A stretch of 64,000 bases of DNA from Pseudomonadota bacterium (GTDB taxonomy: Bacteria; Desulfobacterota; Binatia; Binatales; Binataceae). The translations under genes and the position numbers were made by a program. Of this stretch, positions 12,575-61,767 are shown piece by piece (within the stretch, counting starts at the first letter, position 1; every line of letters begins with the position of its first letter). Below the pieces are notes generated by a model. The model was not told the DNA's origin. It saw nothing but the letters and a program-made list of their open reading frames with translations, and searched no databases. The DNA is taken from the NCBI GenBank assembly GCA_021325025.1, contig JAJPHZ010000022.1, positions 74,646 to 138,645 of the forward strand. Reading direction: 5' to 3'.

Positions 12575-12623
12575 CGGTAACGCGCGCGCCCCGATCTCCA
12601 AACAAGGCGCGCGGAGCGCGGCG

Positions 12624-43040: not shown

Positions 43041-43895
43041 CTACCAGTTCCAGTAGCGTCCCGAAAAACGCCGGTTGCGCTCTTCGATGCCGCCGCGCAA
43101 TCCCTTTTTGCGCACCTCTTCGCGGAAGTCGAATTCGTCGGGCTTGCGCTTTATCTGCAGGGCCAGCGGATGGATGGTGTAATGGGGCAGGAAGAAGCTC
43201 GGGATGCCCAGCGTGCCGTAGATTTCGTGCTGGAAAGATTTGGCGAAAGCCAGGCTGTCGCGCGGCAGACTGCACAGCGCGTGGATCAACTCGTTGACTT
43301 CGTCGTCGAGCTTTTCCATCGGCACCGCGTGGTTGATGAAGTTAAAGCGCTCGGCTTCCTCGGCGGTGAATTTGCGCCCGGTCATAAGCAATTCGCGCGC
43401 GCGCTTAAGTCCGCATTGCATCACTACGAAGGGAAAACACCAAACCCCTCCCGCGTCGCCGTAGCGCGATTCGGGAAAGCCGAACACGGTGTTGTCCGAA
43501 GCGATGGCAAAGTCGGCGACCAGGGTCAGGAACAGCCCCGCGCCGATACAGTGGCGATGGACGCGGGCGATGGTGGGCTTGAGCACGAACATCATGTCGC
43601 GCATGACTTCGGTGCGAAAGCGCAGGGCGTAGATGCCGTCGCGGACGTTGTTTTCGCCCACATCCGCGCCTTCATAGAAGAGGTCGGGGTCGCGCAGGTC
43701 GAAACCGACGCAAAAGGTGTCGCCCTTGCCCATCAGCTCGATCACCTTGACATCGTCGTCCTGCTCGGCACGGTGGTAGGCCTCGACGATTTGGGTGAAC
43801 ATCGGGTCGGTCAGGGCATTGCGCCGTTCCGGGCGGTTGAGAATCACCTTCGCTACCGGGCCGTCCTTTTCGTATAAAATCGCGTCGTCGCTCAT
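43041..43895 (-). CDS. Enoyl-CoA hydratase/isomerase (crotonase) family protein
   Basis: Crotonase-fold opening ILYEKDGPVAKVILNRPERRNAL, then GKGDTFCVGFDL...HCIGAGL. Confidence 0.8.
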   Translation of the reverse strand: MSDDAILYEKDGPVAKVILNRPERRNALTDPMFTQIVEAYHRAEQDDDVKVIELMGKGDTFCVGFDLRDPDLFYEGADVGENNVRDGIYALRFRTEVMRDMMFVLKPTIARVHRHCIGAGLFLTLVADFAIASDNTVFGFPESRYGDAGGVWCFPFVVMQCGLKRARELLMTGRKFTAEEAERFNFINHAVPMEKLDDEVNELIHALCSLPRDSLAFAKSFQHEIYGTLGIPSFFLPHYTIHPLALQIKRKPDEFDFREEVRKKGLRGGIEERNRRFSGRYWNW

Positions 43896-44434
43896 GGTTT
43901 CCTCCCTGGCCGTTGGCCAATCCGAAAACAGTAGGTACTACGAGCGCGGCCCGCGTGCCAACCAGCAGAGCGCGGCCTGAACCGCGCTGTCGTTCGTAGT
44001 ACCGCGCAAGAATCCCAAGCCGGACGAACAAGTTTCCGCGACCCAAACCGGCTGGTAATAGCTGAGCACCGGAAGAAAAACGCGGTGCTGCACAAAGCTC
44101 TTGGTCCGCAGGCCCCCAAAAGGAGTTGAACGAGAGCTCCGTGGGGTTGCATTTTTTCTGCGGTCAAGGCAAATCTTAGAGTCGCATTGGAAGTCGATGG
44201 CAAGATTGGCGGCATAAAAAAAACGCGCGGCGGAACAGACCCCATTTTCTGCAAATTAACGATGTCCAAGTTTAGCTATTGATTTCAGAATTTACGTCTG
44301 ATAGTTGTTTTGCCGCAAGACGCTGAAACGATGGCGGAGCAGGTTTTTCTCCTTCATTTCTTTTGATGACCCCGTCATCTATGTATCATTGGCGAGGTTA
44401 AGGCAGATTGGAAAAGCGTGACGAGCTTCCGAAC

Positions 44435-44474
44435 GGTTCCTTCGTTTTAAGGAACCCTTGGTCATTTTCCGATC
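44435..44474 (+). other. Strong stem-loop (8-bp stem GGTTCCTT/AAGGAACC, 6-nt loop) followed by a T-rich tract, inside the 1.15-kb intergenic region
   Basis: Perfect complementarity is seen directly in the sequence, followed by cttggtcattttcc. It is terminator-like but has no upstream protein gene on this strand. Confidence 0.3.
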
Positions 44475-45043
44475 TTACTGACGAGGCCAGCATAATGCTG
44501 AAGCCAGAGTGTTCAATTCGCTAGCTTCTTGGGCTCTGGCTGCAGTTGTGGGGGCTCCGGAGTTGCTGACTTGTGGGAAATCCCGAAAGTTTGCGCCAGT
44601 TTGCGGAAAGCTGACCGCAAATCTGTGTGGCTAGCGGCTCCAAGATGCTAGCGGACGGCTCCGGAGGCTGTGGACATCCTCTGGACCGAAAACGGGTTGC
44701 CGATCGAAGGAACGGCCGACCCGGTGGGCTGCATTGACGCGTTAAAGGGGGTTATCGTTAAAAGCAGCACGTTTTTACTGCTGCGCAACAACCGTGTGGG
44801 CTTCCCAGCACGGGATGGCGGACGCGTGTTCAAAAGGCCAAGACCGCCAATCCGAAGGATTTTCGGATCAGATCTTACCTTTTATAACTTGAAAGCTGCT
44901 ATTTGTCCTCTCACCTTTGCGGAATCGGGAGCGAGGCCCGTGATTTGCCCATCCCGGCGAAACGGCTGGTTTCGCCTCGCTCCAACTCCGCCTGTCGGAC
45001 CTAAAGGCTCAATGCGTTTTTGGAGGCCGGAGGGTAGGCTCTG

Positions 45044-48000
45044 ATGGCTCAACATCACACCGTTAAATTTGGCTGGCTCGCGACAGGCGCCATCGCGGCG
45101 GCCGCGATTGCCGCTTTGTCCCTGGCCGCACAGGCACAGGTCAGCGGTGGGGGCGGATTTCCGTACCCGACCGGGGTAACGAATGGGGCACCCGTCGCGC
45201 CTGCATATGGTGCAGGCACAGCCCCACCCTCGACGAACCCGTACGCCAATCCCGCCTATGGAAGTGCGCCGTATGGAACTGCGCCCTCCGCAGCAAACCC
45301 AGGGACTAACCCGTACACGACGCCCCCTTTCGGCAGTATCCCGCCCGGAAATCCGGCCTACGGGAGTTCTGCTTACGGACAAACCGCTCCAGGCTGGCAG
45401 GGTAGCTATTCCGCAACGCAATCCTACCTGTACTGGCGCGCTGCCGCCTGTGCCCGGGACCCTCGTAACTGTAGCAACGCGCCGTACAACGGCTACCTCG
45501 GTCCGAACGATTCCTCGTCGTTGTCGAAGTTCAATCCACCGATAACCGTGCCATACGGATCGGCGCCGATGCTGGGCCCGTATGGTTCGCCCGCGATCAC
45601 AGGGCCTTACGTGCCGCCCCCGGGGGGGACCTACGCTCCTCCGGCGCTTGCCAATACTCCGTATGGGCAGCCCGCTCCCTACGCTCAGCCCGGGGGATTC
45701 GGCGCCAATGGTGTGCCCGCCAACAACTCCTTTGCTCCCACGATGAGCAACCCACCCACGGGTGCACTGACCGGCGGGGCCGCATTCGGGCCTTATGGCC
45801 AACCCCCGATGGGCTATGTGGGACCGTCCTCACCGGGCCTGGCGGCCGGATCAGCCAACCTGGCAAACACCCAGATGCCCTCGCTTAACGGTCCTCCGCC
45901 CGCAGGTGGTTTTCCCTCCTCCGGCGGCTTTCCCAACTCAGGAACCATTGGATCATCGACGTCGGCCGCGAATGGCGGTCTGAACAATGCGTCGGGCGGC
46001 AACGGTGCGGCGGGTGGGTCAGGGATTTCCAACCTGCTCGGTGGAATCGACCAGAACACCCTCAACACCGTAGCCGCACAGCTTGGCGTTTCCACCGACC
46101 AACTCAACAAGCTCAAGACGGATGTCGCGAGCGGCGCGATTGGCTCCGACCAGCTACAGCAACTGAGCGCGCGCTTTGGTGCCCTGAACTTGAGCGACAA
46201 CCAGATGAACGCGATTGGCCGAACCTTGGGATTGAGCGACGCACAGATGGGCATGATCAAGCAGACGCTTGCGTCGGCCAGAGGTTCTCAACCCGGTATG
46301 CCAAACCCGGGCTTTGGCCCACCGCCCGCCGGGATAGCGCCGATGATGCCAGCGGTAAACGCAATGCCGCTACAGGTTCCGCCCTCGCCGATCGAGGTCA
46401 AGTTCCAACAAATCGACAATCCTTTGGACCTGCCCCAACCGCCGACAACCGACAATCTGACCCAGTTTGGCTACAACTTTTTTGTCTCAGGGGTTTCAAC
46501 CTTCGCGCCGGTGGCCAATGTGCCGGTGGGCAATGACTACGTCATCGGTCCGGGCGACGAAATCGATATCCTGCTGTGGGGGCGCGTCAACACCGTCTTG
46601 AACCCGGTCGTTGATCGCCAGGGAATGATCCAGGTGACGGAAATCGGACCGTTACAGGTCGCCGGCCTCACCTTTCAGCAAGCCAAAAAGCTGATCGAAG
46701 CCAAAGCCTCCAAAATGACCGGGGTTCAGGTCGACGTGACGATGGGCCAGTTGCGCACCATCAACGTGACCGTGGCCGGCGACGTCGTTCAGCCCGGCAG
46801 CTACCAGATCAGCGCTCTGTCGCGGGTTTCCAATGCGCTGGTGGCGGCGGGCGGGGTCAGCAAGGTCGGCAGCCTGCGCAACATCGAGGTGCGTCATGGC
46901 AATCAACTGGTCGATGTGATTGACATGTACGACATCCTGTTGCACGGCAACAATTCCGCCGACCGGCGCCTGGAAGAGGGCGACGTAATCTTCGTGCCGG
47001 TGATCGGTAGCGTGGTCGGGATTGCCGGCGACGTCAAGCGTCCGGCCATCTACGAGCTCAAGAAGGACCATCCCGAGACGCTGGATGCGGCATTAAGATT
47101 GGCAGGCGGAATTACCGGCTTCGGATTCGGCGACCATCTGCAGGTCGAGCGTATCCAGGACCACAAACGCATGGTGGCGATCAACGTCAGTCTCAGACGC
47201 CTGACCAATCAGAATTTCACGATTCGCGACGGCGATGTCATCAAGGTCTACCCGGTCATGATCGGGCCGGTCAACATGGTGATGCTGTCCGGAAACGTGC
47301 GCCGGCCGGGAAATTATCCGTGGTACAAAGGCATGCGTCTGTCTGACCTGATCAAAAAGGGCGACGGTGTATTGCCTAATACCTATTTGAAATACGCACT
47401 TGTTCGGCGGCTTTCCGGTCCGGGAAAGACCACTCATTTCCTCCAGGCCGATCTGGGCGATGCCCTGGCCAACCCCAGGATCGGGCAGGGTGACATTGCC
47501 CTGCAGCCCAAGGATGAAGTCGATATCTACAACGTTGAGGACGTCCGCGACCTGCCCTCCGTCGCGGTCAATGGAGAAGTGCGCCAGCCGGGCCGTTACG
47601 TCTTCAGCCCCGATATGAAGGTCAGCGACCTGGTCTTCATGGCCGGGGGATTGAAGGATGACGCCTACCAGGATCGCGTCGTGCTGGTGCGAACCGAAGT
47701 CGGCCCCGGTGGCAAGGCACAACGCAAACATTTCGATATCGATCTGCGCTCCATCATGCAGGGCAACTACAGTCTCGACACGCCGCTTAAGGCCAATGAC
47801 GAGTTATTCATAAGGTCGGTCGTGGACTGGCAGCGTCCGCCCCAGTTCGTTGAGATCACCGGCGAAGTCCGCATACCGGGTATCTATGACTACTATCCCG
47901 GCATGCGGGTCGGTGATCTGGTAGCTCTTGCCGGGGGAACACAGGATGATGCCTTTTTGAAGCGCGCGGAGCTGGCCCGCACTGAAGTTGTAAACGGTTC

Positions 48001-48949
48001 GCTGACGCGTCATACCTACATCGACATCGACCTGCGTCCGCAAGCCCAGGGCCCCAACGACAAGGCAACTCTGCTCAAACCCAATGACGAACTGTTGGTG
48101 AAGGCCGCGTCCAATTATCATCTGCCCTTTACCGTTACAGTCAGCGGCAAGGTGATGCGTCCGGGGGTTTACACAATCCGGGAAGGCGAACGGCTGCATT
48201 CGGTGCTTGAGCGATGCGGCGGCTTTTTGCCCGACGCCTTCGTGCAGGGCATCGTCTTCCGGCGGGTGTCAGTCCAGCAGATGGAGCAGGAGCGGCTCAA
48301 TGAAGCCCGCGAGCGGCTGAGCAAGGAAGCGGCGAACGTCGCGTTGACGCAGGCGCAGTTGGCGTCCTTCAACACCACCCCGGGCTCCGGGGCAAGCTCA
48401 GGCAACGCCACCGCCGCCATGATGGTATTGCAAAACGTGCTGTCGGCCTCCACCCGGCAGGCCGAAGGCCGCATGGTTATCCACGTCAATGCCGCGCTCG
48501 ACGGCAAGCCGGGTCCCGATGATGTCGTGCTGGAAGACGGCGACGAGATCGATGTCCCGGTCGTGCCGTCGTCAGTGATGGTGATGGGCGAGGTCAATCA
48601 TCCCAGTTCCTTCCTGAGACTGGGTTCCAAGACCGTGCGCGATTACATCAACGACGCCGGCGGTTTCACCCGTTATGCCGACAAAAAACAGGTCATCGTC
48701 ATCAAGGCGGACGGCTCGGTCCTGACCGCTGACGGCTACGATCAGAGCCGGCGCTCCAGGCTGTTTCCGGCCCTGCCGCTTATCTCGGGCGGCTTGATGG
48801 AGTCCAAACTGGAGGTCGGAGATACCGTTTTCGTTCCTGAAGATCTGTCCGGTTTCCAGAACATACAGATGACCAAGGATATAACGCAGATTGTAGCCAA
48901 CAGCGCCCAGAGCATAGCGATGATGGCGCTGCTCGCGACGCAACTGTAG
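45044..48949 (+). CDS. Giant multi-SLBB Wza/KpsD-like polysaccharide export protein fused to a roughly 450-aa Pro/Tyr/Gly/Ala-rich low-complexity N-terminal region
   Basis: GGAGG-rich RBS then ATG 45044. Signal peptide; residues roughly 30-460 are low-complexity (NPYANPAYGSAPYGTAP..., Gly/Ser-rich, LSDxQM helical repeats). A Poly_export-like domain follows (VIGPGDEIDILLWGR), then at least four beta-grasp SLBB repeats (each ...GEV..PG.Y......V.DL...AGG...). Confidence 0.8.
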   Translation: MAQHHTVKFGWLATGAIAAAAIAALSLAAQAQVSGGGGFPYPTGVTNGAPVAPAYGAGTAPPSTNPYANPAYGSAPYGTAPSAANPGTNPYTTPPFGSIPPGNPAYGSSAYGQTAPGWQGSYSATQSYLYWRAAACARDPRNCSNAPYNGYLGPNDSSSLSKFNPPITVPYGSAPMLGPYGSPAITGPYVPPPGGTYAPPALANTPYGQPAPYAQPGGFGANGVPANNSFAPTMSNPPTGALTGGAAFGPYGQPPMGYVGPSSPGLAAGSANLANTQMPSLNGPPPAGGFPSSGGFPNSGTIGSSTSAANGGLNNASGGNGAAGGSGISNLLGGIDQNTLNTVAAQLGVSTDQLNKLKTDVASGAIGSDQLQQLSARFGALNLSDNQMNAIGRTLGLSDAQMGMIKQTLASARGSQPGMPNPGFGPPPAGIAPMMPAVNAMPLQVPPSPIEVKFQQIDNPLDLPQPPTTDNLTQFGYNFFVSGVSTFAPVANVPVGNDYVIGPGDEIDILLWGRVNTVLNPVVDRQGMIQVTEIGPLQVAGLTFQQAKKLIEAKASKMTGVQVDVTMGQLRTINVTVAGDVVQPGSYQISALSRVSNALVAAGGVSKVGSLRNIEVRHGNQLVDVIDMYDILLHGNNSADRRLEEGDVIFVPVIGSVVGIAGDVKRPAIYELKKDHPETLDAALRLAGGITGFGFGDHLQVERIQDHKRMVAINVSLRRLTNQNFTIRDGDVIKVYPVMIGPVNMVMLSGNVRRPGNYPWYKGMRLSDLIKKGDGVLPNTYLKYALVRRLSGPGKTTHFLQADLGDALANPRIGQGDIALQPKDEVDIYNVEDVRDLPSVAVNGEVRQPGRYVFSPDMKVSDLVFMAGGLKDDAYQDRVVLVRTEVGPGGKAQRKHFDIDLRSIMQGNYSLDTPLKANDELFIRSVVDWQRPPQFVEITGEVRIPGIYDYYPGMRVGDLVALAGGTQDDAFLKRAELARTEVVNGSLTRHTYIDIDLRPQAQGPNDKATLLKPNDELLVKAASNYHLPFTVTVSGKVMRPGVYTIREGERLHSVLERCGGFLPDAFVQGIVFRRVSVQQMEQERLNEARERLSKEAANVALTQAQLASFNTTPGSGASSGNATAAMMVLQNVLSASTRQAEGRMVIHVNAALDGKPGPDDVVLEDGDEIDVPVVPSSVMVMGEVNHPSSFLRLGSKTVRDYINDAGGFTRYADKKQVIVIKADGSVLTADGYDQSRRSRLFPALPLISGGLMESKLEVGDTVFVPEDLSGFQNIQMTKDITQIVANSAQSIAMMALLATQL

Positions 48950-49176
48950 ACGGGCAGGATGACGCGGCTGCGACCTTTCAGACCGCTTGCAGCACGCGCT
49001 CGGCTGATATGCGTGCGGGCTGCACAGCGATCGCCGGCGTCACGTCCTTGCGCCTGGGCCGGGGACGCGAATCTAAAGGGCCGGCCAGGCAACGCGACTG
49101 GGACGTGGACAAGCGTGTGTTCATCACGATTCTCCCGTCACTGTGGTCTTCGGGATGCTGCAGGGAGAAGTAGACA

Positions 49177-51012
49177 ATGCAAGCCAAGCTTACCCTGCTT
49201 CCGGATCGGCAAACCGTTGTGAGCGCGAAAGCTGCGCACCCTGCGCCGGCCCATTATCTACTTGCGTGGACTGGCGCCGTGATCGCGGCTGTAGCCGCGC
49301 TCCTGACTGCATGCTGTGCCGTGCGCGCCTCAACCTATGTGGTGTATATCGCACTGGATGACCCGGCTTACGACGAACTCGACAAACTAAACGGGATGGG
49401 CCTGCTCGACGACTATCTGTCCGAAATCAGGCCCATCGCCCGCGTCGAGGCGGCACGTCTGACCCTGGAGGCGCAGCGCAATCTGGACGAAGCCGAACAG
49501 CCCGATGCGCTGGCGGGCGTGCTAATCCGGTCGCTGCGCGAGGAGTTCCACGAAGAAATCCAGTGGCTGGAAAACGATCACGAAGACAATCCGCCCACCA
49601 TGATTCATCCGCTGGAACGGGTGGAAGCGCAATACATTTATTCAAGCGGCACGCGCCGGCGGTTTGCGCTCTTTAGCTCCAATCCGCTTGAGTATCAGGC
49701 CCAGGAAGCCACTCCGCTGCTGGCCAACAACGATGGTTTACCCACTTCGCCGGGCAGCAACGAGATCTTGCGCATTTCGAACTGGGCAGGCGTGGGCGGC
49801 TTTCTGACTGCGTACGGCGAAACCTCGGTCGCCGGCCCAATCGTTCACAGCCCTGCGCTCTTTGAGCAGGCTTGGCCGCCTGGCGCGCTCTACAACGGCT
49901 CTCCCGCCGTCACCCAAACCTCGGATACCAACCGGCTGCGTCTGCTGCGCGGGGGCGTGGTGGCAAGCATCGGCAATCAGGCGCTGGCCTTTGGCTACCA
50001 GGAAATGGGCTGGGGCACAGGGTACTTCGCTCCGCTATCGCAGGGCAACAATGCGCGTGCGTTTCCGGCCTTGACCTTTCAAAGCGTTCATCCCAGGCTG
50101 CTGCCGGGCTTCTTGCGCTACCTGGGACCGTTTCGGCATCAGATCTTCGTCGGGCGCCTTAATAACGGCCGCTATGCGGAAGATCTGCGGTTAACCCCCC
50201 CGTTGCTCAAGAACTACAATTACCCCTGGATTTCGGGGCAGGTCATCGCGTTCAAACCGCTGCCGACCTTCGAGTTCGGCCTGGATCACGTAATCATGTT
50301 CGGCGGGGCCGGCAACTCAAATTACGGATGGACCGGATGGCTGGGACGCGCCACCGGCCTGAACACCGGAAATACCAGTCAGGGAAATACCAACTCACGC
50401 GGCGGCGTGTTCCTGAAGATATATCTCCCGAGCCTGCGTAACACGGAGATTTACCAGGAGATCCTCGGCGAAGATAATCTGAGCACCGAATTCCGGCCGG
50501 TGGGAGGAGCGCTGCCGTTCCTGTCCGTTTCCTACCAGGGGGGAGTATATATCCCGCGCGTGACCGCCGACGGTTTGACCGATGCCCGCTTCGAATATGC
50601 GCTCATCGAACCGAACTATTCCAGGCACGACGACTCGCTGTACTGGGCCTATTACGGTCAGTTGATGGCGGATCCGATCGGTCCTGACGCCACCGAAATC
50701 GATTTGAGTGTCGGCCGCTGGTTCAATTACCGTTACCGGGGAGACGCCGACGTCTTCTATACCGAACGCGCCCCGAACTTCGAGATTGCCGGGCTCAGCA
50801 AGGAGCGCAGCGGCGGTATCGCGATCGATGTGATGCAGATCCCGGGCAGATTCGACGTCCAAAACTTCTCCCTTCTCGGTTCGCTCAGAGTACGGGCCGC
50901 ATGTGAGTATGTGCATGACATCAACTGGATGCGCGGAACCGACTCGGTGCGGACGATGGTGCTGATATCGGGATCCCTGTGGCCGGCTTGGGGAAGCTGG
51001 ATCTGGCACTAA
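49177..51012 (+). CDS. Putative outer-membrane beta-barrel protein, possibly capsule-assembly Wzi-family
   Basis: After an N-terminal signal/TM, a helical segment (DDPAYDELDKLNGMGLLDDYLSEIRPIARVEAARL) resembles the Wzi N-domain pattern Y..L..L...G......RP..R.E.A.L. The remainder is aromatic/Gly-rich and the protein ends in an aromatic-rich tail (WGSWIWH). Position next to wza fits. Family assignment is from memory only. Confidence 0.45.
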   Translation: MQAKLTLLPDRQTVVSAKAAHPAPAHYLLAWTGAVIAAVAALLTACCAVRASTYVVYIALDDPAYDELDKLNGMGLLDDYLSEIRPIARVEAARLTLEAQRNLDEAEQPDALAGVLIRSLREEFHEEIQWLENDHEDNPPTMIHPLERVEAQYIYSSGTRRRFALFSSNPLEYQAQEATPLLANNDGLPTSPGSNEILRISNWAGVGGFLTAYGETSVAGPIVHSPALFEQAWPPGALYNGSPAVTQTSDTNRLRLLRGGVVASIGNQALAFGYQEMGWGTGYFAPLSQGNNARAFPALTFQSVHPRLLPGFLRYLGPFRHQIFVGRLNNGRYAEDLRLTPPLLKNYNYPWISGQVIAFKPLPTFEFGLDHVIMFGGAGNSNYGWTGWLGRATGLNTGNTSQGNTNSRGGVFLKIYLPSLRNTEIYQEILGEDNLSTEFRPVGGALPFLSVSYQGGVYIPRVTADGLTDARFEYALIEPNYSRHDDSLYWAYYGQLMADPIGPDATEIDLSVGRWFNYRYRGDADVFYTERAPNFEIAGLSKERSGGIAIDVMQIPGRFDVQNFSLLGSLRVRAACEYVHDINWMRGTDSVRTMVLISGSLWPAWGSWIWH

Positions 51013-51027
51013 GGAGGCCGTTGGCGC

Positions 51028-52098
51028 ATGGCGAATAACGAAGAGTTCAACGGGTCCAGGCAGACCCCTGCACAAAGCGGCAATGGCATCTTCGAGCTCG
51101 ACGGTGCGGCCGGAGAGGAAAGCAGCGGCATTCTGCGTTCCTACCTGGCGCTGGTCGCCCTGCGTCACCGCCGTCTGCTGATTGCCGCCACGGTGTCTTC
51201 AATGGTCCTGGTCTTCTGTCTGACCAAGTTCGTGATGAATCCCAAGTACCTGTCGACCGCGATCATCCGGCCGATCGGCCAAAGCACCAGCGGCATCGGC
51301 GGCCTGCTGCAGAGTACCGGGTTGTCCAACATGGCCAACATGAGCGGCACCGGAATTGACAGCGACATCGGCACCAATGTGCACGATCCGGAGGAATTGG
51401 TAGCCATCTTGAAAAGCTACACCTTCACCTCCAACCTCATCGAGAGCGAAAAACTCGGCCCCAGGCTTGGTGGAGGACACAGCATCTGGTCGCTGGTGCC
51501 CGCTTTTTTACGTCCCAAAGGCGGCGGCGGGTCGCCGCTGTGGGACTACTATCAGACGGTGAGTTCGCGTTTTGATTGTGAAAACAGCATGCGCACCGGC
51601 AATATCACCTTAACCTACATCGACAAGGATCCTGAACTGGCCAACTACGTCCTGCGCCTTTATATCGACCACCTGCGCGACCAGCTTCGCGCCCACGATG
51701 TAGCTTATGACAAGGCGGCGGCCAGATCGCTACAGCAGCAGGCGGCCACGGTCAGCGATCCGATGCTGCGCGACGACCTCTACGATCTCGCCGCCCGGCA
51801 AATAAAAAAGATTGGAACCGCGCAGGCCAACGCCGACTTCGCCTTCACCGTCCTGGAGAGACCCTACACCCCGCCTTATCCCGACCGGCCCTGGGTGGTG
51901 CTCGATACGCTGGCCGCCGGCATCGTGGTGCCGCTGTTTGTTTTTCTGGGCTTGGTGGTGCGCGACTGGGCGCCGCGTGTGAAGCACGATCTCGCTGAGG
52001 CTGCCTATGTGTCGGAGCGCACTCCCGACAGCATTGCGCTGTCGAGGAGACCTCGGCGTGCTCCGAGCCCCGAACAGGACCGGCCGTACACCGGATGA
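51028..52098 (+). CDS. Wzz-like polysaccharide co-polymerase (PCP-1 type, two TM helices)
   Basis: An N-terminal TM (LLIAATVSSMVLVFCLTKFV) directly precedes a Wzz-like motif (NPKYLSTAIIRP). A periplasmic coiled-coil follows, then a C-terminal TM (VVLDTLAAGIVVPLFVFLGLVV). Confidence 0.65.
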   Translation: MANNEEFNGSRQTPAQSGNGIFELDGAAGEESSGILRSYLALVALRHRRLLIAATVSSMVLVFCLTKFVMNPKYLSTAIIRPIGQSTSGIGGLLQSTGLSNMANMSGTGIDSDIGTNVHDPEELVAILKSYTFTSNLIESEKLGPRLGGGHSIWSLVPAFLRPKGGGGSPLWDYYQTVSSRFDCENSMRTGNITLTYIDKDPELANYVLRLYIDHLRDQLRAHDVAYDKAAARSLQQQAATVSDPMLRDDLYDLAARQIKKIGTAQANADFAFTVLERPYTPPYPDRPWVVLDTLAAGIVVPLFVFLGLVVRDWAPRVKHDLAEAAYVSERTPDSIALSRRPRRAPSPEQDRPYTG

Positions 52099-52143
52099 AG
52101 GTAAGTTCCGCGGTTGGCGTGCCGGTATAGTTCCCTGATTCTC

Positions 52144-52818
52144 ATGACGCTCGACCCATATCTGATCAAAAGGGTACCGAAATGGCATTGGAAACGCTTG
52201 ACCTTTACTGCGTGGGCAAAACTGTCGGACCTGCATAGCCGGCTCTTCTTCCAGGAATACGAGATTCCCATGATCGATCGCGTCGGTGAACCCGGCGCCG
52301 CGCCCGATGCCTGTTGGGATGAAACTCAGGTCACACCGCAGCAAGCGGCCTACTTGTTAAAGGCCCTCGCCTTGGCTGACAATTGCGGGGAGTGCGTCGT
52401 CGAGGTCGGCGCCTGGCGCGGGGTCACGACGGAATATCTCGCCGCGGCCACCGACTCTCCCGTAGTTGCGATCGACCCGTTTATCGGTTCGGCAAACGAG
52501 ACCAACTTGCGCCGCTTCATGGAGCGGACCGCCGCCCTGGGGAATGTCACGTTGAGGCGCGAGACTTTTGGCCAGGCAGTGCGCAACTGGAATCTTGGTC
52601 CGGCGCGATTCATTTTCATCGACGCCGCTCATGACTACGTCAACGTGAGCCATGATCTTGCCGCGGCGATGCGTATCACGAAGCCGGGAGCGATTTTGGC
52701 ACTACACGATGTTGACGATCGGCGCTATGCTGGATGCCGAAGGGCGGTCTACGAGCGGTTAGAACGGTTCGAGCTTATCGCGCACATTCCGAACCTCGTC
52801 ATAGTGCGGCGATCTTAA
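52144..52818 (+). CDS. Class I SAM-dependent methyltransferase (Methyltransf_24/TylF-related O-methyltransferase)
   Basis: Motif I VVEVGAWRG and post-I IFIDAAHDY...ILALHDV. The start is uncertain (ATG 52144 preferred; TTG 52114 and ATG 52270 are alternatives). Confidence 0.6.
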   Translation: MTLDPYLIKRVPKWHWKRLTFTAWAKLSDLHSRLFFQEYEIPMIDRVGEPGAAPDACWDETQVTPQQAAYLLKALALADNCGECVVEVGAWRGVTTEYLAAATDSPVVAIDPFIGSANETNLRRFMERTAALGNVTLRRETFGQAVRNWNLGPARFIFIDAAHDYVNVSHDLAAAMRITKPGAILALHDVDDRRYAGCRRAVYERLERFELIAHIPNLVIVRRS

Positions 52819-52828
52819 GTAATCGGCG

Positions 52829-53623
52829 GTGAAGAATATACTTAAATCCTTTCTGCGTAGCTATCTTCTGGAAAGAGGATGGCGGCCGGCGGCTGCGATA
52901 CCGATCGAGGCCGCATGCCTTAACACCACGTTTCATTACGATGAAGAGCAAGATATAAGGCGTGCCATAGCAATTGTTCGCGGTCATACAATGATGTCTT
53001 TCGAGCGAGCTGCGACGCTTTGGCAACAGATGCGCTATCTTGACCGCCATCAGATCGAGGGTGCCATGGTGGAATGTGGTGTTTGGAAAGGCGGTGCCGT
53101 GGGACTGAGCGCCCTGGCGCACCTGGCGTCAGCAGCTCCTCCCCGCCGCCACCTCCATCTGTTCGACAGTTTCAACGGTCTTCCGGAGCCCGATGAGGAA
53201 CTGGACGGTCACAAAGCCGTACAGCTGAGCAATGGCAGGGCTTCGGGACGTCTCCAATCAACAAATGTGCTGGTGGCCGGAATCGAGGATAGCAAGACTC
53301 TTCTTGAGAGCATCATCGGCTATCCAAAAGAGCTGATTCATTACCATCGGGGCTGGTTTCAAGATACCATACCGCGTGATGCCAATACGATTGGTGCAAT
53401 CGCACTCCTCAGAATGGACGGCGACTGGTACGAGTCAACCGCGATCTGCATCAAGTATCTGTATCCGAAGGTCGCAAAGAACGGTATTGTCGTGATCGAC
53501 GACTATGGTCACTTCGAAGGGTGCCGCCGTGCGATAGACGAGTTTCTAGCCAAAGAAGCGTGTCCCATATTCTTAAACCATGTCGATTATGCCTGCCGGT
53601 ACTTTATCAAGCCTGAACGATGA
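52829..53623 (+). CDS. TylF/MycF-family macrocin-type sugar O-methyltransferase
   Basis: Family motifs ECGVWKGGA, LFDSFNGLP, and MDGDWYEST...VIDDYGHFEGCRRAIDEF. Confidence 0.8.
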   Translation: MKNILKSFLRSYLLERGWRPAAAIPIEAACLNTTFHYDEEQDIRRAIAIVRGHTMMSFERAATLWQQMRYLDRHQIEGAMVECGVWKGGAVGLSALAHLASAAPPRRHLHLFDSFNGLPEPDEELDGHKAVQLSNGRASGRLQSTNVLVAGIEDSKTLLESIIGYPKELIHYHRGWFQDTIPRDANTIGAIALLRMDGDWYESTAICIKYLYPKVAKNGIVVIDDYGHFEGCRRAIDEFLAKEACPIFLNHVDYACRYFIKPER

Positions 53624-53718
53624 CTAGACTATTAGCGCGCGAGCTGCCCAGCGCCTGGAACGTGGACGGGTGCTGAGAGAGTCGCTAATCCCAGGCTGGC
53701 CAGCAAACAGAGGAGGAG

Positions 53719-54843
53719 GTGCGGTCGATCGGACCAAGCAAGGCCCATCCCACGGTTGCAGTGTTTTTTCCGTTGCTCGCCGGAGGCGGATTGGAGCGGG
53801 TAATGTTGAACCTGGCCCGCGGTTTGGCGCTGAAGGGCACGCGTGTCGACCTGGTACTTGCGTGCGCGCAGGGGCCTTACCTCCAGGCCGTGCCTCCGGG
53901 CGTCAATCTGGTCGATTTCCGTTCGCTCAGGGTAAGCAGGTCGATCCTGCGCCTGGCGAGTTATCTCCGGCACAGGCGGCCCGATGCGGTTATTTCGGCT
54001 TCCACCCACGCCAATGTGGCCACCATTTGCGCCAGAGCGATTGCGCGCGGCGCCACGCGCGTGATCGTCACCGAACATAACCCGCCGACCACGGTTGCTG
54101 AGTACAACCAGGACTGGCGTACGTGGTTGCTGCATAGGACCATGAAGTCGGCCTACCGCTTCGCCGACTCAGTGGTGGCCGTGTCCCGGGGTCTGGCCGA
54201 CGATATGGCACGCCGCCTTCAGTTTGACCGCGACAGCATAAATGTCATCTACAATCCGGTGGTGACACCTGCGCTTCTTGCCAACGCCGCCGAACCCCTG
54301 GACCATCCATGGTTCGGACCGGGGCAACCCCCAGTTGTTCTAGCCGTGGGCCGGCTTGAGCCGCGTAAGGACTTTTCCACCCTGCTGAGAGCGTTCACCC
54401 GGCTCAGGCGCGCGCGGCCGGCGCGTATTATGATTCTGGGCGAAGGCCCGGACCGACCGCGGCTGGAATCAATTGTCCGAGAGCTGAGGATTGAGGAAAA
54501 CGCAGCACTTCCCGGCTTTGTGGATAATCCCTACAAATATATGAAGCGGGCAAAGGTTCTGGTTCTTTCTTCCCGATCGGAAGGACTGCCGACGGTTCTG
54601 ATCGAGGCGATGGCTCTGGGAACGCAAGTGGTGAGCACGGATTGCCTGAGCGGACCAGACGAGATTCTCGAATGGGGAAAATGGGGAAAATTGGTGCCGG
54701 TTGGTGATGACCTTCAAATGGCCTCCGCCATCTGCGATATTCTCGACGGTCGAGCTCGCTACAACGTCGAAGACCGAGCATCGGCTTTCTCACTGGATAA
54801 TATCGTTGATTCCTACCTCGATGTGGTATTGGCCGGCAGTTGA
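53719..54843 (+). CDS. Family 4 (GT-B) glycosyltransferase
   Basis: AGGAGGAGG RBS then GTG 53719. N-terminus FFPLLAGGGLERVMLNLARGL. C-terminal GT4 core PVVLAVGRLEPRKDFSTLLRAF...SRSEGLPTVLIEAMALGTQVVSTD. Confidence 0.85.
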   Translation: MRSIGPSKAHPTVAVFFPLLAGGGLERVMLNLARGLALKGTRVDLVLACAQGPYLQAVPPGVNLVDFRSLRVSRSILRLASYLRHRRPDAVISASTHANVATICARAIARGATRVIVTEHNPPTTVAEYNQDWRTWLLHRTMKSAYRFADSVVAVSRGLADDMARRLQFDRDSINVIYNPVVTPALLANAAEPLDHPWFGPGQPPVVLAVGRLEPRKDFSTLLRAFTRLRRARPARIMILGEGPDRPRLESIVRELRIEENAALPGFVDNPYKYMKRAKVLVLSSRSEGLPTVLIEAMALGTQVVSTDCLSGPDEILEWGKWGKLVPVGDDLQMASAICDILDGRARYNVEDRASAFSLDNIVDSYLDVVLAGS

Positions 54844-55050
54844 TGCGTTCCTGCAGGATCGAGTAGCAGCGCTCCGGAGAAGTAGACTTGCGGAACCTAC
54901 GCGTAACGCCTGCAAGCAAGCATCTACGGCCGGGCTGGTCTCAATTGCCCTGTATCAGTCCGGACGGAGGCCGATGCGCTTTTCTATGAAAGGGTCCGCG
55001 TTACCTTTGGGACAGCAAGCCGCGCGAGTTGCGAAAGACGCTTTTGACCG

Positions 55051-56412
55051 ATGAACCCGGCTGGCATCTGGCTGTCACTGCAAAAACGCAGCGCCTTCGG
55101 AGCTAATGTTGCTCTGACGGCTGCGACTAACCTTGCCATCGGAGTGCTTGGTCTGGTCACCGGAGTTCTCGCGGCGCGCCTTTTGGGCCCGCGCGGGCGA
55201 GGGGAGCTGGCGGCCATCCAAACCTACCCGATGCTACTCGCAAACCTGGCTATGCTGGGAACCGGTCCGTCGGTGGTCTATTTTTCGGCGCGTGATCCCG
55301 AACGCGCCGGGCGCTACCTTGGCTGCGCGGCTGTGATCGCGCTGCTTGCCTCCGCGCCTTTGATAACCGGCGGCTACCTGGCGATGCCGCTGTTGCTATC
55401 GGCCCAGTCGCCCCAAATCGTGACTGCGGCATGCTGGTACCTGATCAACGTACCCGTAGTCGCGATCATGTCGCTGTGGCTCTTTGTGCTGCGCGGCCGC
55501 AGTGATTTCCTGCCCTGGAACGCACTGCGGATTTTGCCGACCCTGGCTTGGCTGGCGGTGCTGGCTTCGGCCTGGTTGTGCGGAATCAGAGACCCGCGTC
55601 GCGTCGCGGCGGTTTACCTTGCCGCTCTATTCGCACTGTTAATCCCGTTCGAATTGATAGTCAAAAGGAACGTGCCGGGACGATTCACGCCCGAGGCGCG
55701 TCAATTCAGGCCGATGCTCGCCTATGGATTGCCTTGCGTGGCTTCCAGCTTGCCAGTGGTACTCAACCTGCGTCTGGATCAGATGTTGATGGCAGGCCTG
55801 CTGGCGCCCAGCGAACTCGGCCTGTACGTAGCGGCCGTTGCTTGGAGCGGCGCGATTAATCCTCTGATGAACGCCTTAAGTTCGGTGTTGTTTCCGAAGA
55901 TTGCTGCGCACAGGGCGGAAGCGGACCGCTTCCGCAGTTTCTTGCACGGCAGCCGCCTCGCGGTTGTGGTCGCCTTGATCACGGCGCCAATACTGGCTGC
56001 AGCCACTCCATGGGGCGTGGTTCTATTGTTCGGGGCCAAATTCCGCGGCGCGATCAAGGCGGCGCTGATACTGGTCCCGGCCGGGGCGGTGTCGGCACTC
56101 AACAGCGTGATCGAAGAGGGTTTTCGCGGCCTCGGCAAGCCGGCCGCGGTATTGTACGCCGAACTGGCCGGGCTGTTGATGACGATTGTCAGCTTGTATC
56201 TGCTGCTGCGCCCCATGGGGATCATCGGCGCGTCGATCGCTTCTTTGGCGGGTTATTCGACCGTAATGATGTCGCTGCTGCTTCAGGCCCGCTGGCTGAC
56301 GCACAAGTCGCCGGCTGAATTGCTGCTTCCGAGTCCGGAGGATGTTGTCGAAGGGCTTAAGCGCTTAGCCACATTGGCGCGGAGCATGGTTTTGGTGATA
56401 TCGCGCGCCTGA
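55051..56412 (+). CDS. Wzx-type polysaccharide flippase (MOP superfamily), second copy in the window
   Basis: 453 aa, about 12-14 TM helices, with Wzx-typical loop motifs (LGPRGRGELAAIQTY; LPCVASSLPVVLNLRLDQMLMAGL). Confidence 0.8.
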   Translation: MNPAGIWLSLQKRSAFGANVALTAATNLAIGVLGLVTGVLAARLLGPRGRGELAAIQTYPMLLANLAMLGTGPSVVYFSARDPERAGRYLGCAAVIALLASAPLITGGYLAMPLLLSAQSPQIVTAACWYLINVPVVAIMSLWLFVLRGRSDFLPWNALRILPTLAWLAVLASAWLCGIRDPRRVAAVYLAALFALLIPFELIVKRNVPGRFTPEARQFRPMLAYGLPCVASSLPVVLNLRLDQMLMAGLLAPSELGLYVAAVAWSGAINPLMNALSSVLFPKIAAHRAEADRFRSFLHGSRLAVVVALITAPILAAATPWGVVLLFGAKFRGAIKAALILVPAGAVSALNSVIEEGFRGLGKPAAVLYAELAGLLMTIVSLYLLLRPMGIIGASIASLAGYSTVMMSLLLQARWLTHKSPAELLLPSPEDVVEGLKRLATLARSMVLVISRA

Positions 56413-56512
56413 AAGAGGTTGCAGCGATTTGCTGCCTGGCACGCCGCAACAAGCGCCTGGCCTGCTTGCGGCATTACGTCGGCGCGGATGACTTGTTGCT
56501 TTTACGAAATCG

Positions 56513-57400
56513 ATGGCGCGTAAACCGAATTTCTTCATAATTGGCGCTCCCAAGTGCGGCACGACTTCTCTGGCTACCTATCTCCGTGAACACCCAAAAA
56601 TATTCTTCCCGGCTCGAAAGGAACTGCTCTTTTTCAACACCGATATGGCGTCCCGGGCGGTCCGGTCCGAGGCCGATTACTATGGATATTTCAGTGATGC
56701 CCAGCCGCAGCATATTGCAGTCGGTGAAGGCTCAGTAACGTATCTATATTCCGACGCAGCGGTACCCAATATCCTGAAAGCAATTCCCGACGCCAAGTTT
56801 ATCGTGATGGCGCGCAATCCGATCGACATGGCGGTCTCCTTGCACGCGCAGCTTCACCGCCAGGGAGACGAAAATTTGAAAGACTTCGCGACCGCCTGGC
56901 ATGTGCAGGAAAAGAGAAAAAAGGGAAAGCGGATTCCGCCGCTTTGCACCGATCCGAGCCTTTTACTGTATGGCAATGTCTGCAGCGTCGGATGGCAGTT
57001 GAAGCGGCTTTACACTAGAGTTGCCCGGCACCGTGTGCTCGTCCTCTTCCAAGACGACCTCAAGCGCGACACCAGGTCGGTGTATCTGCAGACACTGGAG
57101 TTTCTTGGCGTGCCGGACGACGGCCGAACGGCCTTCGGCGTCCACAATACTCGCCAGCCCCGGCTCCGCTCGCAACTTTTTCAGGCCGTACTCCGCTCCA
57201 TCGGCGTTCTAAAACTGAGACTGGGTGTGAAACGTTCATTCCGCATCCTGCCTCTGATCGAGCGACTCAATGTTACGTCCGTCCGAGAGAGCGTGATCGA
57301 CCGGGAATTCAAGGTGGAGTTGGCGCAATACTTCCGCAACGACGTGGAAGAGATGTCCACCCTTGTAGACCGTGATCTGTCAGCGTGGCTGCGAGTCTGA
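56513..57400 (+). CDS. PAPS-dependent sulfotransferase (carbohydrate sulfotransferase-like)
   Basis: 5'-PSB motif FFIIGAPKCGTTSL at the N-terminus. A 3'-PB-like region (RNPIDMAVSLHAQ). Confidence 0.8.
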   Translation: MARKPNFFIIGAPKCGTTSLATYLREHPKIFFPARKELLFFNTDMASRAVRSEADYYGYFSDAQPQHIAVGEGSVTYLYSDAAVPNILKAIPDAKFIVMARNPIDMAVSLHAQLHRQGDENLKDFATAWHVQEKRKKGKRIPPLCTDPSLLLYGNVCSVGWQLKRLYTRVARHRVLVLFQDDLKRDTRSVYLQTLEFLGVPDDGRTAFGVHNTRQPRLRSQLFQAVLRSIGVLKLRLGVKRSFRILPLIERLNVTSVRESVIDREFKVELAQYFRNDVEEMSTLVDRDLSAWLRV

Positions 57401-57526
57401 CGCGGACGGTTGCACGGGTCGAAATGCCGCCGGAATCGGGCGGCGTGTACGCGGGCGCCAATAGCGGGCACGCCGCGCAAGTCCATGCGCAATGCCGCGT
57501 TTGTGCACTGAAGCGTGGGGCGTTAG

Positions 57527-58945
57527 ATGAGTGTCCAATTCGTTATTTATGGCGCAATCGTGCTGGTCGCCTCGCTGATCGCCTTGATCGTGGTCAAGCC
57601 GCGCAATGCGTTCGACCTCAGCCGCTGCGTGGGCTGGTACATCCTGCTCTTTGCGACGACCTATGTGGTGCGGCCGGCATTGTCGGAGTTGGTCGGCGAC
57701 TATTCGATGTACCAGTGGTTGCAAGCCGGCTATCTCGAGGATCACTGGGAACTAATGGCGGTCGCCGGCTCGCTGGCGATTGTCTGCTTCGGAATCGGCT
57801 ATGCATCAGGGCGCCCATCGCGCCGGCTCGCGGCCGTCGCCGAAAATCCGGCGCCAGAGCCGACAGTAAATCCGCGTCTGGTCCGAAGACTTATTGTTTG
57901 TCTTCTCTTCATTGGCTACCTGTCCGCATTGTTTGTTCTAAAATACGGCGGCGGGGACGAAACGCTTCACGCCAGGACTGCCACGATGGGGACCTACGAG
58001 CACGGCACGGCCTGGTTCTCGCAGGATGATCTGCTTATTTCGTGCGCCACGGTCCTTTACTATATAGCGACCGGACGTCTTGGCATAAGTCTCTTGCTAG
58101 CCGGTCCATGGCTTGGGTTAAGAGTACTAAGCGGGTGGGGCAGGACGAACCTGATTGGGCACTTTTTTGCGCTGATGTCCGTGTATTTTCTCAAGCGCCG
58201 CAAGAGGGAACGTGTTGCCGGGAAAACTCGTCAGGCTCTTGTCATCGGTTGCGGGGTTGTGTCGGTGCTTGTTCTGTTTCCGTTGATGGGGATGCTGCGG
58301 GGTTTGAGAAGTGAGTTGGGTGGCAGCGCAAAGGATGCCATCATGATGGTACGATCGACCACCGATCCGGGAGACGTGGCGCAGACCTATTTCGGCACCA
58401 ACAGCCCGGTCTCCGGATTTGAACTGACGCTGTCGCATCTGGTTAACGACAAACGTTCCGAACTGGGTACACAGTATCTATACTATTTTTTCTTCCAGCC
58501 AATCCCGCGCATTATCTGGCCTGGCAAAGGCAGCCCATACAGTTGGCCGGAAAAGCTGCGGGGCATCGAGGTCGACCCCTTATTGGGAATAATCGGTGCT
58601 GCTCCGGGCTCGATCGGGATGGCATTCGAGCAATGGGGCTGGCTCGGGATTCCGCTGGAATTCATCCTTACCGGGCTGATAATTCGCAGGTGGGAGGAAG
58701 CCGCACGCCGGCGCCCGAAGGCGCTTCATGTGCAGTTAAGTTATGCAGGACTTTGCAGCCTCGTGCCGCAGCTCGGTCGAGACAGTTTATTTTATATGAT
58801 CTCGCAGTTCTGGCTGTTTAAGTTCGGCATCGCAGTTTTCATCCTGTGGATTATGTACCGAAGTGAGCTCGCACGAAGCGGATTGCGAACGACTTCAGCA
58901 CGTGTGTTTCCGGTGCCGCCGGCCCCAGCCGCTGCCAAGGCGTAG
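57527..58945 (+). CDS. Wzy-type oligosaccharide repeat-unit polymerase (membrane protein), second copy
   Basis: 472 aa, about 10-12 TM helices with a large central loop. No conserved enzymatic motif; it sits between the wzx and GT genes. Confidence 0.6.
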   Translation: MSVQFVIYGAIVLVASLIALIVVKPRNAFDLSRCVGWYILLFATTYVVRPALSELVGDYSMYQWLQAGYLEDHWELMAVAGSLAIVCFGIGYASGRPSRRLAAVAENPAPEPTVNPRLVRRLIVCLLFIGYLSALFVLKYGGGDETLHARTATMGTYEHGTAWFSQDDLLISCATVLYYIATGRLGISLLLAGPWLGLRVLSGWGRTNLIGHFFALMSVYFLKRRKRERVAGKTRQALVIGCGVVSVLVLFPLMGMLRGLRSELGGSAKDAIMMVRSTTDPGDVAQTYFGTNSPVSGFELTLSHLVNDKRSELGTQYLYYFFFQPIPRIIWPGKGSPYSWPEKLRGIEVDPLLGIIGAAPGSIGMAFEQWGWLGIPLEFILTGLIIRRWEEAARRRPKALHVQLSYAGLCSLVPQLGRDSLFYMISQFWLFKFGIAVFILWIMYRSELARSGLRTTSARVFPVPPAPAAAKA

Positions 58946-59117
58946 TGCTCAAGGCTCGAGCTGGTGACGCAAAACCAACGCCAGGCCCTCGAAGTGCGCA
59001 AAAATAGCAGTTTTTGCACCGAACCTCGACGGTGGTGCTGCGGGTCGCATCGCCGCCCGATTGGATACGCTACGGGGCAGTCCGGGCTTGCTGTGCGGTG
59101 CAAAGCTTCGGCTTTAG

Positions 59118-60356: not shown

Positions 60357-60370
60357 ACCGCCGGCGACCA

Positions 60371-61561: not shown

Positions 61562-61767
61562 CAGGGTGTTGAGAAAGTATATCTCTCCCAGAGGGACAGA
61601 AGATTAAGGAAGGAAGCCATTTTTTATGCAGGTATTGTGCACAACCTGCTTGGTGAACTCCACAATCCCGAAGTCGCATTCATTGAGCTTTCCTTTACGC
61701 GAAATTGAAGTGGCGGTGAGAGCGAGCCGCGGGAATACCTCGGGTCGCCGCCAGAGCTAGCGTTACG

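Follow-up and report, generated by a model that had tools for sequence, protein, structure and literature searches.

The 1148-nt intergenic gap at positions 43896-45043 of the window (the 64,000-nt stretch of contig JAJPHZ010000022.1 analyzed here) separates an enoyl-CoA hydratase gene from a gene for a 1301-aa outer-membrane polysaccharide exporter, which starts at ATG 45044. In our judgment, the gap quite probably carries a promoter and a long leader with a new variant of the ops element, which would recruit a specialised NusG paralogue for the transcription of a 12-gene operon of more than 18 kb. The explanatory feature is the sequence TGGCGGACGCnTG at 44816-44828 together with the inverted repeat that precedes it, neither of which was among the features listed in a first-pass annotation of the same DNA. 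The gap as a whole is best explained as a divergent control region, in which the left ~110 nt would serve an acyl-CoA operon and the exporter side the polysaccharide operon; positions 44006-44248 were left outside both assignments.

Conservation of an ops-like core upstream of the exporter gene

The element, designated block C (44792-44828, plus strand), consists of an inverted repeat followed by the invariant sequence and conforms to the pattern G(C/T)A(C/T)Gnnn-TGGCGGACGCnTG. Its ops-like core, T-GGCGGACGCGTG, occupies 44816-44828 on the plus strand, 228 nt before the exporter gene, with the 12-mer itself at 44817-44828; the motif can also be written in the shorter form GGCGGACGC. Conservation was assessed across eight orthologous loci, namely the window and seven loci (L003-L009) fetched through the exporter protein, whose exporters are 62-80% identical to that of the window (L003-L005) or 72-78% identical over the C-terminal 849 aa (L006-L009). 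The upstream neighbour differs among these loci, encoding enoyl-CoA hydratase in L003 and L005 and an amidohydrolase in L007-L009, and the leaders are very diverged, with blastn aligning short islands only. Alignment of the eight leaders with E-INS-i recovered four blocks (A, B, C and D). In block C, TGGCGGACGCnTG is invariant in all eight leaders, and its distance to the ATG is 156-330 nt irrespective of the upstream gene.

Ten of the 12 positions of the window core GGCGGACGCGTG agree with the Escherichia coli ops element, GGCGGTAGnnTG (for the ops consensus, see PMC11213015 and PMC5995543). The 5' GGCGG, G8, T11 and G12 are identical, the difference being confined to T6A7, which is replaced by A6C7; across the eight orthologues, variation is confined to position 10, which is also one of the two variable positions of ops. 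In ops, T6A7 lies in the loop of the non-template DNA hairpin and comprises the bases that RfaH reads (PMC5995543, PMC11213015). The GG-N8-TG frame is retained, as G44817 and G44818 (-11 and -10), T44827 (-1) and G44828 (+1) are invariant in 8/8 leaders, and the core sequence agrees with the elemental pause signal (G at -11/-10, a pyrimidine at -1 and G at +1). In addition, GCG-GA-CGC keeps the mini-hairpin potential of the non-template strand. The core variant is represented by one copy in the window, from which canonical GGCGGTAGnnTG is absent; matches to ops with up to one mismatch occur at chance level only, on the minus strand and outside the gap.

Two hairpins precede the core. Hairpin H1 (44764-44784, plus strand; GCAGCA-cgtttttac-TGCTGC) has a counterpart ~30-50 nt before the core in each of the eight orthologues when these are folded singly, with stems that are mostly GC(A/G)GC / GCTGC. 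Hairpin H2 (44792-44813, plus strand; CCGTGTGGG-ctt-CCCA(g)CACGG), a candidate pause hairpin, contributes its 3' arm as the GCACGG of block C. H2 was recovered by RNAalifold on the eight leaders, a run that returned only short helices and a covariation term of -0.5 kcal/mol, and it pairs in 84% of cells versus 27-53% with slid partners. MAFFT combined with RNAalifold on 90 nt around the core missed the hairpins, the loop lengths of which differ. In a wider set of motif copies described below, the YACGn segment is paired more in non-coding than in coding copies (median 0.70 versus 0.47, Mann-Whitney p = 0.003), and one locus (L106) carries GCCGTCC-AG-GACGGC directly before the core, in the place of H2.

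Two other readings of this segment were tried and rejected: a palindromic operator CACG...CGTG, the 3' half of which varies (C[G/T/A]TG) without compensation, and a sigma-54 reading of GGCACG-N-TGGCGG, on account of its spacing and its lack of conservation.

Recurrence of the motif and linkage to NusG paralogues

The motif was further sought by scanning 241 million metagenome records with the 20-mer YACGNGATGGCGGACGCNTG, which returned 89 loci. Most of these are chance matches in coding sequence that encode ..HAMADA.. and show strong codon periodicity, while ~30 copies lack the periodicity and are non-coding. The coding matches, which were used as a natural control set, include L046, L049, L059, L074, L084, L085, L087, L090, L092, L099 and others; one conserved family ends in ...AEAEYHAMADA-stop and another contains ...MYEMADACNNG..., and thus a GC-rich 20-mer can recur through protein conservation.

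Among the non-coding copies with an identifiable same-strand gene downstream, this gene almost always has a polysaccharide function. In at least 11 new loci, the same-strand downstream genes were assigned by Pfam to polysaccharide functions of non-orthologous kinds: a large exporter with SLBB domains (L029, L043/L081, L082), a small Wza-like protein (L080/L083, L054, L035), a glycosyltransferase of family 4 (GT4; L076/L063, L069), a Wzc-like kinase (L028), Wzz (L058) and acyltransferase 3 (Acyl_transf_3; L017). The motif is always sense-oriented ahead of a long same-strand polysaccharide operon. Recurrence ahead of unrelated polysaccharide genes is the behaviour behind the name JUMPStart.

The motif is also linked to genes of NusG paralogues. 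A 3.66-Mb contig (L010) encodes an exporter orthologue of 55% identity and, ~2.1 kb upstream, a 171-aa PF02357 protein. A tblastn search with this paralogue placed a same-strand homologue 210-810 nt ahead of the motif in L081, L076, L063, L042 and L045, all of which had been found through the motif alone. The reciprocal test started from three paralogues (P0126, P0134 and P0161) obtained by protein search, the motif being ignored in their choice; all three loci have an SLBB exporter 400-1200 nt downstream, with (G/A)GCGGACGCTTG in between.

Comparison of the linked paralogues with NCBIfam models gave 90-96 bits for RfaH (TIGR01955), 61-68 for UpxY, 38-42 for NusG and 36-44 for LoaP. Their best match in the PDB is E. 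coli RfaH (E 4e-12), to which they are about 27-32% identical, and many are named RfaH in the annotation of the Joint Genome Institute (JGI). The AlphaFold2 model of P0126 has a confident N-terminal NGN domain and a helical C-terminal domain with a predicted local distance difference test (pLDDT) score below 50; the model is uninformative about RfaH-like autoinhibition.

Two additional features were observed in the paralogue- and motif-bearing loci. In several of them, a conserved open reading frame (ORF) of ~150-180 aa is interposed between the promoter and the RfaH-like gene (L010 1628-2164; L081 6518-6943; L045 338-763; L105 4111-4569; coordinates in L081 and L045 oriented with the motif on the plus strand). 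It has a lipoprotein-type signal (..LLACLLGSCS..), matches no Pfam or NCBIfam model, and recalls UpxZ in its position; a secreted lipoprotein is, however, an improbable anti-factor. A subfamily-specific box, GGAATCTGGACGGCGATCGCTCAATTTTGG(C/T)GA, occurs between promoter and motif, 30-70 nt upstream of the motif, in L029, L043/L081, L063/L076, L045, L075 and L069.

Predicted promoter and structured leader

Block A (44249-44312, plus strand) is the putative promoter of the operon. It contains TTGATT-N14-TGA-TAGTTG at 44279-44307, ~765 nt before the ATG, which can be divided into a -35 element TTGATT (44279-44284) and a -10 element TAGTTG (44302-44307), the 17-nt spacer between them having TGA as its last bases (TG at 44299-44300); the transcription start is predicted at ~44313-44316. 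The block conforms to GCTATTGA(C/T)-N14-TGnTAnnnn, and CTATTGA(C/T) and TGnTA are present in all eight orthologues; upstream of the -35 element, CTGCAAATTAA (44249-44259) is also kept in L003 and L004. Relative to the sigma-70 consensus, the -35 matches at 4/6 positions, and the 17-nt spacer and extended -10 TG are present, while the -10 matches at 2/6 and lacks the final T. A consensus promoter scan returned no promoter in the gap, block A escaping it because of this weak -10.

The reading of block A as the operon promoter is supported by paralogue-linked loci, where the same promoter architecture precedes the motif at a distance of roughly 130-450 nt. Block-A-like promoters were found ahead of the motif in unrelated loci as TTGACG-N15-TGT-TATAAC (L081, L045), TTGACG-N14-TGA-TAGCTG (L042) and TTGACC-N14-TGA-TAAGCA (L103), the form common to L103 and L105 being TTGACC..TGn-TA(A/G)GCA. 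A near-consensus -10, TATAAC, stands at the homologous position in L081, L045 and L076.

Block B (44375-44398, plus strand) has the form (G)TGTATCAT(T/A)G, with the core form GTGTATCAT near 44382. It is present in six of the eight orthologues, is 92% identical to L004 over 24 nt and was not found in the wider motif family; it might supply the -10 element (TATCAT) of a second promoter or act as a site for a protein or RNA. Block D (45014-45043, plus strand; TTTTGGAGGCCGGAGGGTAGGCTCTG) is the translation-initiation region, with a Shine-Dalgarno sequence GGAGG at 45029-45033, 10 nt before the ATG. The pattern TTTTGA(A/n)GGCCGGAGG is kept in 7/8 orthologues, and the Shine-Dalgarno region takes the form TTTTGAnGGCCGGAGG.

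The predicted 5' leader of the polysaccharide operon thus extends over ~730 nt (44313-45043, plus strand) and is structure-rich and free of any conserved ORF. The core follows block A at 477-530 nt in each of the eight loci, and block B at 434-456 nt in the five with a block B match. The block-B-to-core segments of all eight fold better than shuffled sequences (z -1.7 to -4.3). For 44310-45043 of the window, the minimum-free-energy z-scores are -3.6 (plus strand) and -2.9 (minus strand).

These results bear out the boundaries and the non-coding nature of the ~1.15-kb gap given in the first-pass annotation, together with its lower GC content and its richness in structure. The GC content is 54.0% in the gap, 63.0% in the window and 45% at 44150-44500. 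No ORF of the gap has a Pfam match, and no gene is called in the gap in the JGI annotation of an identical soil-metagenome contig. In tblastx comparisons with the orthologous loci, similarity is equal across all frames, which therefore reflects nucleotide conservation and not a conserved protein. The other gaps seen in the window are below 500 nt, in a survey of gaps that was not rigorous. A 124-aa ORF with a GTG start (44670-45044), whose stop overlaps the exporter ATG (TGATG) and mimics translational coupling, was rejected as a gene, having no Pfam match, an arginine-rich out-of-frame composition and no frame-specific conservation. Perfect hairpins of at least 6 bp number 14 in the gap (7 distinct), some five times the 3.0 +/- 2.2 of dinucleotide shuffles; none of 500 shuffles reached 14, and coding stretches of equal length gave 2-4.

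The individual hairpins named in the earlier annotation exist, and their conservation is uneven. The one at 44764-44784 has a 6-bp stem and is H1, with its counterpart in all eight orthologues, whereas the remaining two are not recognisably conserved. The first of these is a perfect 8-bp hairpin at 44435-44456 (plus strand; GGTTCCTT-cgtttt-AAGGAACC), which was not scored as a terminator in the scan; L004 has the potential for another hairpin there, with AGGAATCC at its end. The second, a 7-bp hairpin placed earlier at 44599-44620, is real and lies one base further on, at 44600-44621. It is enclosed in a long imperfect hairpin (44519-44653, plus strand), the outer arms of which (44519-44532 and 44640-44653) are 93% complementary and which appears in both the minimum-free-energy and the centroid structures. 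The repeated words gctagcgg and ggctccgga reported before turned out to be the arms of this single hairpin, which has no second copy anywhere searched and is not conserved in sequence. Between the core and the ribosome-binding site, the leader contains a 7-bp stem-loop at 44850-44868 and a second at 44929-44986 with an outer stem GGAGCGAGGC/GCCTCGCTCC enclosing an 8-bp hairpin at 44956-44976 (both on the plus strand); neither is an intrinsic terminator, since a T-run after it is lacking. Among the explanations proposed at first, a long structured 5' leader fits these data, given the conserved promoter-like block, the constant leader length and the folding of all eight leaders.

Proposed mechanism and its weak points

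From the arrangement of these elements we infer the following course of transcription. RNA polymerase would start at the sigma-70-type block A, with its good -35, extended -10 TG and weak -10, and would then transcribe the highly folded untranslated leader. About 510 nt into the leader it would meet the composite element, hairpin 44792-44813 followed by GGCGGACGCGTG, in which the 12-mer keeps the ops pause determinants and the GCG..CGC potential, and the loop read by RfaH is changed from TA to AC. The polymerase would pause at T44827, where the RfaH-like paralogue may bind the exposed non-template strand, possibly aided by the upstream hairpin. By staying on the polymerase, the paralogue would exclude NusG and Rho and suppress pausing, so that transcription would reach the end of the operon. 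Like E. coli RfaH, the factor would be trans-acting in this lineage; in related lineages, the factor gene is located directly upstream of the same promoter-motif-exporter arrangement.

Several observations weigh against this scheme. Recognition of the site by the paralogue is an extrapolation, because the two bases at which the motif departs from ops are precisely those read by RfaH, and the role of the core as a pause or recruitment site is proposed from sequence and genomic association. The promoter assignment suffers from the weak -10 and the negative consensus scan, and block B might itself be the true promoter, or a second one. A single copy of the core variant in the window is unremarkable by itself, as at least one copy occurs in 13 of 100 shuffles, and the core of L010 is degenerate (AGCGGACGCGCC, without TG). 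All scores of the linked paralogues are below the curated cut-offs, including that for RfaH (TIGR01955, 90-96 versus 144.5 bits). Neither the 64-kb window nor the flanking DNA fetched for L003-L009 contains a gene for a NusG paralogue, and none of the paralogues from protein searches could be tied to the window's own clade. Covariation, which the first-pass annotation had proposed to look for in related intergenic regions, is not above that of shuffles in H2, despite its conserved pairing. Finally, 14-15 nt separate the end of H2 from T44827, the predicted pause base, which is further than the 11-12 nt typical of hairpin-stabilised pauses. Two outlying opsX sites of Bacteroides reach -12 or -16 (PMC11213015).

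A broader and more tentative reading, to which we give somewhat less than an even chance as a whole, joins three proposals: that the hairpin and GGCGGACGCnTG form an undescribed class of ops site that marks the regulon of an uncharacterised RfaH-like NusG paralogue family; that this family is widespread in uncultured Binataceae-type soil bacteria and is used both in cis, next to the factor gene, and in trans, as would be the case in the window; and that the structured leader ahead of the site, with its conserved length of 430-530 nt, is a functional module of its own, which might bar Rho until the factor is loaded, or sense a signal.

Alternative explanations

An unlikely alternative is that block C operates as a regulatory pause or RNA element without a specialised NusG paralogue, either as a hairpin-plus-consensus pause that synchronises transcription with translation, Rho or NusA, or as an RNA hairpin to which another protein binds, or which the paralogue recognises as RNA in the manner of LoaP. 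The lack of a linked paralogue in the window and its closest relatives accords with this explanation, as do the fit of the motif to the elemental pause consensus, the conserved inverted repeat ahead of the core and the structured leader of all orthologues. However, the invariant 12-mer reaches well past the three pause determinants, and the linkage between the motif and RfaH-like genes was repeated in both search directions. To our knowledge, base-for-base conservation across leaders so diverged is not a property of known pause elements.

We consider it improbable that block C is a double-stranded DNA site, such as a transcription-factor operator or a sigma-54-type promoter, with the operon starting there. 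The distance of 156-330 nt to the ATG would suit a promoter, and (T)GGCACG precedes the core in five of the eight orthologues as a possible -24 element; yet the sequence departs from the sigma-54 pattern TGGCAC-N5-TTGC (GG-N10-GC), the spacing being N9. In place of GGCACG, the window has AGCACG and L007 and L008 have GGTACG, while the hexamer is absent from L103, L105, L106 and L010. In addition, the 12-mer is asymmetric, non-palindromic and always sense-oriented.

Equally low in probability is a riboswitch-like sensor, or a source of one or more small RNAs (sRNAs), in all or part of the leader. The first-pass annotation had suggested both, and the plus-strand excess of structure, the conserved leader length and the unexplained block B are in keeping with them. 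The Rfam search recommended there, run at permissive E-values, gave no family at threshold: the lowest E-value was 0.76, outside the gap, and the best matches reached 22 bits versus a gathering threshold of 42.5 and were outside the gap or implausible. A scan for tRNA and tmRNA was negative, and a terminator scan for a GC-rich stem followed by a T-run found 0 sites versus 2.3 expected, leaving no terminator-like site to end an sRNA or to serve as an expression platform. The short RNAalifold helices with their covariation term of -0.5 kcal/mol, and the fact that most hairpins are not conserved, also argue against a sensor or an sRNA.

A decayed insertion, miniature inverted-repeat transposable element (MITE) or other mobile-element remnant, the last of the initial suggestions, is scarcely credible: the lower GC content and the unique 135-nt imperfect hairpin at 44519-44653, which resembles a palindromic element, would fit it, but no part of the gap has another copy in the window or the 108 fetched loci, no transposase fragment was found, and layout and length are kept in the eight orthologous loci despite their differing upstream neighbours.

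Genomic setting and other features of the window

The operon that the recruited paralogue would serve (45044-63678, plus strand) comprises 12 genes over more than 18.6 kb and runs to at least 63678. Its first gene (45044-48949, plus strand) encodes the 1301-aa Wza-like outer-membrane polysaccharide exporter with a Poly_export domain and seven SLBB domains. The exporter gene is followed by genes for Wzi, a Wzz-like protein, two methyltransferases, a GT4 glycosyltransferase, a Wzx flippase, a sulfotransferase and Wzy, and further by two GT1 glycosyltransferases and an AsnB-like amidotransferase, the whole being an operon of the Wzx/Wzy type. The two methyltransferase genes (one TylF-like) and the sulfotransferase gene are situated beside Wzx and Wzy at 52114-57400; since the operon encodes these enzymes, its content suggests a methylated and sulfated exopolysaccharide.

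The N-terminus of the exporter (45044-46480) is a low-complexity extension of ~480 aa, rich in Pro, Gly, Ala, Tyr and Asn, which begins with a signal-peptide-like sequence and precedes Poly_export and the seven SLBB domains. It is also present in close orthologues. In the long-contig assemblies L005 and L007-L010 it is broken by apparent frameshifts, which are probably sequencing errors in repetitive sequence.

On the other side of the gap, the enoyl-CoA hydratase gene (43041-43895, minus strand) is followed by two acyl-CoA dehydrogenase genes. The adjoining segment (43896-44005, minus strand) is 72-82% identical to L003, where the adjacent gene is likewise an enoyl-CoA hydratase gene, and is missing from loci that have another upstream gene. 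Because it is conserved only with L003, which has the same adjacent gene, it is assigned to the divergent acyl-CoA operon, of which it is probably the 5' region or promoter-operator, outside the exporter leader. This segment holds an imperfect inverted repeat (arms 43934-43946 and 43991-44003). The repeat had been counted earlier among the structures upstream of the exporter; it is real, at 43934-44003, and belongs to the enoyl-CoA hydratase side, and in L003 it is reduced to GGTAC...GTACC and is otherwise lost. At 43944-43963, on the minus strand (that of the enoyl-CoA hydratase gene), TTGGCACGCGGGCCGCGC shows the sigma-54 GG-N10-GC spacing, which may be due to chance, as L003 does not keep it.

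Elsewhere in the window, a second envelope-related gene set lies ~30 kb upstream (10616-13487), with no motif copy nearby. Judged by eye, it appears to encode a large multi-pass membrane protein of the O-antigen ligase/Wzy type and a polysaccharide-deacetylase-like ORF. At 14496-15692, on the minus strand, a 398-aa low-complexity ORF rich in Gly, Ala and Ser has no Pfam match and a local GC content of up to 76%; its status as a real gene is uncertain.

Significance and comparison with known systems

At the level of annotation, an unexplained 1.15-kb gap is replaced by a proposed promoter, leader and antitermination site. The occurrence of GGCGGACGCnTG in a leader offers a simple tag by which uncultured soil bacteria can be searched for exopolysaccharide operons and the regions that control them. 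Neither the motif nor ops sites in this lineage were found described in the searchable literature, where the motif string itself retrieved unrelated primers only. In a 2020 survey of RfaH-like proteins, E. coli RfaH was the sole family member with recruitment understood in detail (PMC7593976), to which that of Bacteroides UpxY has since been added (PMC11213015). From the window and the loci derived from it comes a concrete candidate, open to testing, for the recruitment sequence of a third group, which is abundant in the environment. Since it departs from ops precisely at the two bases that determine specificity, this candidate constitutes a natural experiment in the co-evolution of a paralogue and its DNA site.

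LoaP of Bacillota and TaA of Myxococcota are likewise specialised NusG paralogues that provide read-through of long biosynthetic operons from a leader element. LoaP reads an RNA hairpin and controls polyketide clusters, and we know of no sequence element common to these systems and the motif described here. The paralogues in relatives of the window differ from LoaP in scoring 36-44 bits with its model.

The UpxY/opsX system of Bacteroides fragilis shares with the window the location in the leader of a capsule or exopolysaccharide operon and, in relatives, a NusG paralogue linked to the polysaccharide locus. A further possible parallel is the combination of an RNA pause hairpin, for which H2 is the candidate here, with a non-template DNA hairpin having a GCG..(A/C)GC stem. 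In Bacteroides opsX, the pause hairpin is accompanied by a GCG..AGC non-template hairpin (PMC11213015). Neither an UpxZ-like inhibitor nor an invertible promoter was seen in this comparison. The gene order also differs: UpxY is encoded by the first gene of its operon, downstream of opsX, whereas here the exporter gene comes first and the paralogue gene is upstream of the promoter, as in relatives, or elsewhere. The core sequence is another, and the relatives' paralogues score 61-68 bits with the UpxY model NF033644 (cut-off 100), below their score with the RfaH model.

The likeness is greatest to RfaH of E. coli and other enterobacteria with its ops element, which lies within the JUMPStart sequence of the rfb, rfa, kps, hly and tra operons. 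In both, a 12-nt element is situated in the leader of long polysaccharide operons and contains GGCGG..G(c)nTG, the pause determinants and the potential for a GCG...GC mini-hairpin, and the linked factor in relatives is closest to RfaH. The element of the window would likewise be located in a transcribed, untranslated leader, a position that follows from the predicted promoter; the kps region 3 leader, for comparison, is roughly 740 nt long. The factor of the window's lineage is apparently unlinked and trans-acting, as in E. coli. In contrast to ops, positions 6-7 of the window core are AC instead of TA, so that the 12-nt ops consensus itself is not matched, and the core is directly preceded by a conserved hairpin. 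The window and the flanks of L003-L009 yielded no TIGR01955-equivalog RfaH. The host is not an enterobacterium but a member of an uncultured lineage from soil, whose relatives carry the labels Binataceae or 'Proteobacteria bacterium', and in many of these relatives the gene of the factor adjoins its target.

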